A model generated the notes under the pieces. The model saw nothing but the letters and a program-made list of their open reading frames with translations, searched no databases and had not been told where the DNA came from. The translations under genes were made by a program, and so were the position numbers. Below, piece by piece: positions 58,108 through 58,236 of a stretch of DNA of 64,000 nucleotides (positions within the stretch are counted from its first letter, which is position 1; each line of letters begins with the position of its first letter). Location of the stretch: NCBI RefSeq assembly GCF_003334355.1, contig NZ_QOWP01000001.1; one strand, 5' to 3'. The DNA is from Escherichia coli. Lineage in GTDB: Bacteria; Pseudomonadota; Gammaproteobacteria; Enterobacterales; Enterobacteriaceae.

Positions 58108-58236
58108 TTGCCGGATGCGGCGTAAACGCCTTATCCGGCTACATGTCAACGACAGTTGTAGGCCTGATAAGACGCGCAAGCGTCGCATCAGGCGTTGATT
58201 GCCGGATGCGGCGTGAACGCCTTATTCGGCCTACGC
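58108..58236. repeat. BIME cluster of three REP elements
   Basis: GCCGGATGCGGCGTAAACGCCTTATCCGGCTAC, GTAGGCCTGATAAGACGCGCAAGCGTCGCATCAGGC and GCCGGATGCGGCGTGAACGCCTTATTCGGCCTACG in alternating orientation between cca and uppP. Confidence 0.8.

Follow-up and report, generated by a model that had tools for sequence, protein, structure and literature searches.

Which elements occupy the two long spacers between the convergent gene pairs cca–bacA and yghA–exbD of Escherichia coli, where do they come from, and do they matter for the genes beside them? We addressed these questions in a chromosomal stretch of 64,000 nucleotides, referred to here as the window, for which the RefSeq annotation names the flanking genes as cca, bacA (= uppP), yghA and exbD. 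The spacers measure 180 bp at cca–bacA and 158 bp at yghA–exbD, and the yghA–exbD spacer differs between the window strain and K-12. Each of them contains a cluster of REP units, and both clusters are extragenic, located between the stop codons of a convergent gene pair. The four genes are arranged as follows.

56857-58095, plus strand: cca, convergent with bacA; stop codon at 58093-58095
58276-59097, minus strand: bacA (the older name of uppP), convergent with cca
6079-6963, plus strand: yghA, convergent with exbD
7122-7547, minus strand: exbD, convergent with yghA

For the assignment of REP units, we applied blastn-short against the Y, Z1 and Z2 consensus sequences, which agree with the "known REP sequences" printed in Durrant et al. 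2024 (PMC11208160); all E-values refer to the 64-kb window. A reading of this DNA made from the sequence only (the sequence-only reading) had proposed a three-unit BIME between cca and uppP at 58108-58236, with the units in alternating orientation. The search recovered exactly such an arrangement (+/-/+), with coordinates that agree within 2 nt.

58110-58142, plus strand: REP unit 1, Y type (GCCGGATGCGGCGTAAACGCCTTATCCGGC-TAC); 29/30 identities to Y, E = 3e-10; hairpin of -21.7 kcal/mol
58143-58157, no strand: tail-to-tail linker of 15 nt (ATGTCAACGACAGTT), joining the CTAC of unit 1 to the GTAG of unit 2
58158-58193, minus strand: REP unit 2, Z2 type, inverted (plus strand GTAGGCCTGATAAGACGCGCAAGCGTCGCATCAGGC); 35/36 identities, E = 9e-14
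58194-58200, no strand: head-to-head linker GTTGATT of 7 nt, between units 2 and 3
58201-58234, plus strand: REP unit 3, Y type; 33/34 identities, E = 1e-12
58257-58275, no strand: right flank (ATCCGACACTATTCCTCAA), also present in the REP-less allele as the 3' half of a decayed Z2-like hairpin

Each of the three units is 97% identical to the published consensus, and unit 2 can in addition be aligned with the Z2 part of the naRNA4 consensus in Rfam. Unit 1 begins 14 nt past the cca stop codon and has lost one C just before its CTAC tail, while unit 3 ends 41 nt before the stop codon of bacA. Units 1 and 3 form a direct repeat with a spacing of 91 bp and an identity of 94%. The repeat character of the region is also visible in the statistics of the sequence: the tail 14-mer CTTATCMGGCCTAC, with up to two mismatches, occurs three times in the window against 0.62 expected occurrences, a number reached in none of 100 shuffles, and the 180-nt cca–bacA spacer folds far better than its shuffled versions (z = -7.2 on the plus strand and -8.9 on the minus strand). 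By megablast, the REP-containing portion of the cca–bacA query was found at a median of 24 places per genome. Since its Y and Z2 units alternate in orientation and are set only 15 and 7 nt apart, the cca–bacA element, with its 1.5 copies, is more probably an array of the BIME-2 type than an atypical BIME. A 7-nt head-to-head linker is also present in another Z2-Y pair (locus L018), one of only two head-to-head pairs among the fetched loci; Y-to-Z2 tail-to-tail linkers were not found in that set.

The second cluster had been described as a pair of REP units at 7013-7113, again in alternating orientation. Two units (+/-) are indeed present at 7015-7047 and 7084-7112, and their arrangement can be specified further, as shown by the features of the yghA–exbD spacer.

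6967-6997, minus strand: strong intrinsic terminator hairpin of exbBD, 12 pairs followed by a T-run, 4 nt past the yghA stop codon
7015-7047, plus strand: decayed Y REP (ACCTGATGTGGCGAAAACGCCTTATCC-GCCTAC); 29/34 identities by eye, with only a 13-nt core significant
7048-7083, no strand: L linker of 36 nt (AAACGCATGAAGATTCAACATGTTGCAATAGATTTT), aligning to the linker consensus of 101 elements
7060-7072, no strand: IHF-type core ATTCAACATGTTG, a putative site that agrees, by eye, with 8/9 specified positions of WATCAANNNNTTR
7084-7112, minus strand: Z1 REP, inverted; 28/29 identities, E = 1e-9

BIME-1 elements are defined by a Y and a Z1 unit split by a long, well-conserved L linker, which often carries an IHF site (Ton-Hoang 2012, PMC3333891). 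The yghA–exbD cluster is a single BIME-1, consisting of Y, L linker and inverted Z1, with Y and Z1 placed tail to tail across the long linker. The Z1 unit starts 9 nt past the exbD stop codon on the minus strand, and transcripts of exbD must cross the BIME-1 before they reach the terminator at 6967-6997. This hairpin is the sole content of the yghA–exbD spacer in strains without the BIME; in a supplementary table of a 2026 preprint, the exbB:exbD:yghA hairpin is given as a bidirectional terminator, located beside REP222. The sequence-only reading had called all of these units canonical. The term is justified for four of the five, with 97% identity to their class and hairpins of -12.6 to -21.7 kcal/mol on either strand that show the usual internal mismatch. 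It does not apply to the Y unit at 7015-7047, in which a 1-nt deletion and substitutions break the lower stem (-8.8 kcal/mol) and the CTAC tail is retained.

To place this element among its relatives, one genome per species was scanned with the pattern CCTAC-N(8-16)-TTCAA-NNNN-TTGCA-N(6-14)-GTAGG. The scan revealed at least 120 loci, and among the matches listed nearly all belong to Escherichia (E. coli, E. albertii, E. whittamii and Escherichia sp.) and Pseudocitrobacter; a handful of isolated matches in unrelated taxa, among those listed, corresponds to about the chance expectation. 101 of the matches listed have a Y unit on one flank and a Z1 unit on the other, though the flanks were left unspecified by the pattern. 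Their empirical consensus reads GCCGGATGCGGCGTAAACGCCTTATCCGGCCTAC / AAAATCGTGCAAATTCAATATATTGCAGAAACCTT / GTAGGCCTGATAAGCGTAGCGCATCAGGCA, where the linker consensus AAAATCGTGCAAATTCAATATATTGCAGAAACCTT has to be read with 20 positions per element already fixed by the search pattern. The BIME-1 of the window agrees with 85/106 columns of the 101-element consensus (80%), compared to a family median of 91% and a 5th percentile of 80%. The decay of its Y unit suggests relaxed constraint.

Both elements are already known, as the sequence-only reading had stated when it called them not novel, and they depart from their long-described REP/BIME families only by ordinary decay and copy-number change. 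The cca–bacA array resembles BIME-2 elements like REP325, located between yjdM and yjdN, in its alternating Y and Z2 units, its short linkers, its 3' intergenic location and the variation of its copy number in whole Y+Z2 steps of 91 bp. In addition, it matches the Rfam family RF02564 (naRNA4), whose model was built from the REP325 array (PMC4550694). It is, however, much shorter, with 3 units (1.5 copies) compared to the 12 units of REP325, and its unit 1 has the 1-nt deletion beside the CTAC tail. The head-to-head linker is 7 nt long instead of the 13 nt of the naRNA4 consensus, and the array is placed between convergent genes, whereas REP325 lies inside an operon. The yghA–exbD element shares with BIME-1 (RIP/RIB) the tail-to-tail Y, the 36-nt L linker with its TTCAA-N4-TTGCA core, the Z1 unit and the location at the 3' end of transcription units. 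It differs by its decayed Y unit and by an identity at the low end of the family. BIME-1 are described as single-copy per locus (PMC3333891); the window has one copy, but K-12 carries two in tandem at yghA–exbD, so that this locus departs from the rule. The K-12 element between yghA and exbD is catalogued as REP222 in the table of the 2026 preprint, and its counterpart between cca and bacA is probably REP225, a name interpolated from the neighbouring numbers.

If the repeats account for the length of the spacers, as had been proposed, strains without them should have shorter ones; a comparison of REP copy number between strains had been suggested as a check. The comparison of E. coli genomes revealed that both spacers are polymorphic. 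An 801-bp query around the cca–bacA site matched all 5,426 complete E. coli genomes, and the following alleles were distinguished at this site.

180-bp spacer: Y-Z2-Y, in the window and in K-12
187-bp spacer: Y-Z2-Y plus a partial fourth unit
90-bp spacer: a single Y unit, flanked on the left as unit 1 is and on the right as unit 3 is; shorter by one 91-bp period
80-bp spacer: an L-like motif and a decayed Z2-like hairpin, the 3' half of which persists in the window at 58257-58275
156-162-bp spacer: a different GC-rich repeat, without REPs

At least 80% of the query was covered in 2,843 of the 5,426 genomes, which corresponds to the REP-bearing alleles of 180, 187 and 90 bp. The GC-rich repeat (…CCCCTCGCCCCTTCGGGGAGAGGGTTAGGGTGAGGGG…) is present at full length at cca–bacA in 1,260 of the 5,426 genomes. 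It is a dispersed sequence found at a median of 5 places per genome (examples are positions 297-458 of locus L009 and 297-452 of locus L010), and it may resemble the "boxC" family. The remaining quarter or so of the genomes are mostly of the 80-bp type, as judged from an evenly spaced sample (n = 40 records). Thus, about half of the E. coli genomes have no canonical REP array between cca and bacA. The one-unit and the three-unit alleles differ by the 91-bp Y-to-Y period. Since the sequence at 58257-58275 is shared with the REP-less allele, it is a leftover of an earlier occupant of this place.

At yghA–exbD, the K-12-type allele with two tandem BIME-1 copies and a spacer of 271 bp accounts for about 60% of the 40-record sample, and about 30% of the sample is of the type of strains 536 and ABU 83972, which have no REP and a spacer of 38 bp with the terminator only. 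The single-copy allele of the window is a minority allele: it was found in at least 60 genomes, and of the 40 evenly spaced records only the top-ranked one carries it. It is the same as the K-12 allele except that exactly one 113-bp unit is missing, and the crossover point is ambiguous within an identical stretch of 39 bp (7056-7094). From copy 1, the window allele has kept the decayed Y and the variant of the linker, and from copy 2 the variant of Z1. With these parts of both copies retained, a deletion is likelier than the reverse event, and the single BIME-1 of the window more likely arose by deletion from a two-copy state. The repeats thus explain the spacer lengths at both loci, with 38 bp without the element compared to 158 bp at yghA–exbD, and 90 bp (one REP) or 80 bp (none) compared to 180 bp at cca–bacA.

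The description of the two sites as recombination hot spots agrees with these data as well, as the copy number shifts between strains in whole units of 91 bp and 113 bp and the yghA–exbD spacer has in addition received insertion sequences. In strain E29 (NZ_CM143894.1), an IS621 copy (positions 2894-3874 of locus L005) is located inside the Z1 unit of the first yghA–exbD BIME-1, at GTAG|AGGCC. IS621, a member of the IS110 family, has a bridge-RNA recombinase. GTAG and AGGCCTGAT border the E29 copy on its two sides. This insertion point is the natural target of IS621, ATCAGGCCTAC with a CT core (PMC11208160). In the window, exact copies of ATCAGGCCTAC occur at two places only, 7084-7094 and 58158-58168, both on the minus strand and both in the Z-type units of the two BIMEs. 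Both BIMEs are thus natural landing sites for IS621. In strain 118UI (NZ_CP032515.1), an IS200C copy (positions 274-732 of locus L004) directly follows the stop codon of yghA and thus lies upstream of both the terminator hairpin and the two BIME-1 copies.

Taken together, we consider it very probable that both features are ordinary members of the REP/BIME repeat family of E. coli. Judged by this family, they would have originated as non-autonomous, selfish-type repeats. The REP-associated tyrosine transposase (TnpA-REP/RAYT) would disperse and rearrange them, together with homologous recombination between units, and they may persist where they are least harmful, namely between the 3' ends of convergent genes. 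Binding of TnpA-REP in vitro needs a GTAG 5' of the stem and a mismatch in the stem (Ton-Hoang 2012, PMC3333891). The GTAG/CTAC motif is found in all five units, and GTAG together with the stem mismatch in four of the five. As inverted REP pairs with these two properties and a patchy distribution between strains, the elements resemble REPIN/RAYT systems, and we infer mobilisation at cca–bacA and yghA–exbD from there. A RAYT gene is not expected within the window.

Several effects on the neighbouring genes can be envisaged; the description of the two sites as mRNA-stability hot spots likewise draws on the literature. Transcribed into the 3' untranslated regions of cca, bacA and exbD, the stable hairpins would block 3'-to-5' exonucleases, and, going by the literature, they may also act as partial, Rho-assisted terminators. 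REP325 was described as a partly Rho-dependent terminator and mRNA stabiliser, and REPs between convergent genes were found to go along with higher expression of both genes, although with large variance (2026 preprint, Harris et al.). A terminator scan revealed no terminator-like site between cca and bacA other than the REPs, and therefore these two genes have no strong 3' structure besides the REP array. A hairpin at 58078-58106, which extends over the stop codon of cca and precedes a TTTT, had been considered as a terminator and was not counted as part of the element. It has 7 bp and is weak (-11.9 kcal/mol), the terminator scan missed it, and other strains carry mutations in its 3' arm, so that a conserved terminator is improbable here.

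The units 14 nt past the cca stop codon and 9 nt past the exbD stop codon would be near enough to stall terminating ribosomes and to dampen translation. According to Liang et al. 2015, quoted in PMC12306157, ribosomes stall and translation is reduced where a REP lies no more than 15 nt from a stop codon. On the DNA, the Y/Z2 array would be a likely site for gyrase and the L linker a likely one for IHF, going by the literature. A more far-reaching version, according to which the cca-proximal REP and the exbD-proximal Z1 lower the level of the CCA-adding enzyme or of ExbD in this way, and their natural replacement creates a promoter-independent dosage difference in tRNA repair or in the TonB system between lineages, seems rather improbable to us. 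If it were true that the stop-proximal units tune the translation of cca and exbD, the natural alleles would be ready-made material for studies of REP function. For the cca–bacA REP, probably REP225, no entry was found in the part of the tables of the 2026 preprint that was consulted. Since many strains live without the elements, any local role is dispensable, and neither element is essential in this respect.

This dispensability raises the question whether there is any local effect at all. The elements might be purely neutral or selfish DNA that is tolerated between convergent genes and has no measurable effect on its neighbours. We regard this as possible but doubtful. Presence/absence and copy-number polymorphism with both flanking genes intact, an unrelated repeat at the cca–bacA site in 1,260 genomes and a unit that has decayed would all fit such a view, and in the 2026 preprint the variance is large and half-lives show no uniform effect. 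On the other hand, exonucleases should be hindered by hairpins as stable as -12.6 to -21.7 kcal/mol once these are transcribed into a 3' untranslated region, two of the units have a stop codon no more than 15 nt away, and REPs between convergent genes correlate genome-wide with higher expression of both, as reported in the same preprint. A primary role at the level of DNA appears unlikely. Here, the Y/Z2 array would be a strong gyrase site relieving the supercoiling between the convergent cca and bacA, and the L linker an IHF site bending the DNA between yghA and exbD. BIME-2 elements are enriched in gyrase cleavage sites, which favour Y units and do not depend on transcription (PMC6379681), the BIME-1 L linker often carries an IHF site (PMC3333891), and the L core is conserved in the element of the window. 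However, only a subset of BIME-2 is cleaved (PMC6379681), the consulted supplements of that study contain no entry for cca, bacA, exbD or yghA, the array is short with its 1.5 copies, the IHF-type core matches only 8/9 specified positions by eye, and many strains do without either element.

The match to Rfam RF02564 could also be taken to mean that the cca–bacA array is a small RNA gene whose nucleoid-associated product, like naRNA4, condenses the chromosome together with HU. The match itself lies above the threshold (58161-58231, minus strand, 79.3 bits against a gathering score of 59.5). The model, however, consists of a Y hairpin and a Z2 hairpin and is matched by any generic Y-plus-Z2 pair, so that the hit confirms a REP pair and not a small RNA gene. 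Furthermore, the opposite strand also scores 49.5 bits, and no promoter-like site was found near the array. According to the 2026 preprint, REP325/naRNA4 gives no measurable nucleoid compaction, and REP-REP contacts are neither long-range nor dependent on HU. We therefore consider such a gene very improbable, and the Rfam "sRNA" match at cca–bacA should not be read as one. As textbook E. coli repeats, the two elements explain two long spacers; small ORFs across them are spurious, and such strain-variable spacers are poor anchors for alignments or primers.

Elsewhere in the window, a single REP-like hairpin (TGCCGGATGACGACTTAACGTTTCATCCGGCG, 19947-19978, -18.1 kcal/mol) was observed between plsC and parC. 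It has a Y-type head and no GTAG/CTAC tail, and its position is that of an element named REP223 in K-12 tables. A Y-like 12-mer at 16360-16371 was dismissed as a chance occurrence, as it lies inside an ORF of 739 amino acids. Apart from the naRNA4 match, the Rfam matches above threshold were the following.

49717-49866, minus strand: Sib antitoxin RNA
50092-50241, minus strand: Sib antitoxin RNA
40874-41022, minus strand: FMN riboswitch
12825-12888, plus strand: ES173 small RNA

BIMEs of the E. coli type were also encountered on short contigs from non-enteric assemblies, i.e., on a 261-bp contig labelled Methylobacterium frigidaeris, a 262-bp contig labelled Desulfosporosinus sp. OT (L040) and a metagenome-assembled genome labelled Bacteroides (L070). 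Positions 1-113 of the first of these (L101) equal 58122-58234 of the window with one mismatch, after which the contig runs into a BIME-1. These three look like E. coli contamination or repeat-induced chimeras. Between the plsC–parC hairpin and cca, the offset to the coordinates of K-12 MG1655 shifts by 1,337 bp. This places about 1.34 kb of extra sequence in K-12 within approximately 20000-56800 of the window coordinates, roughly the length that an IS2 insertion would add.
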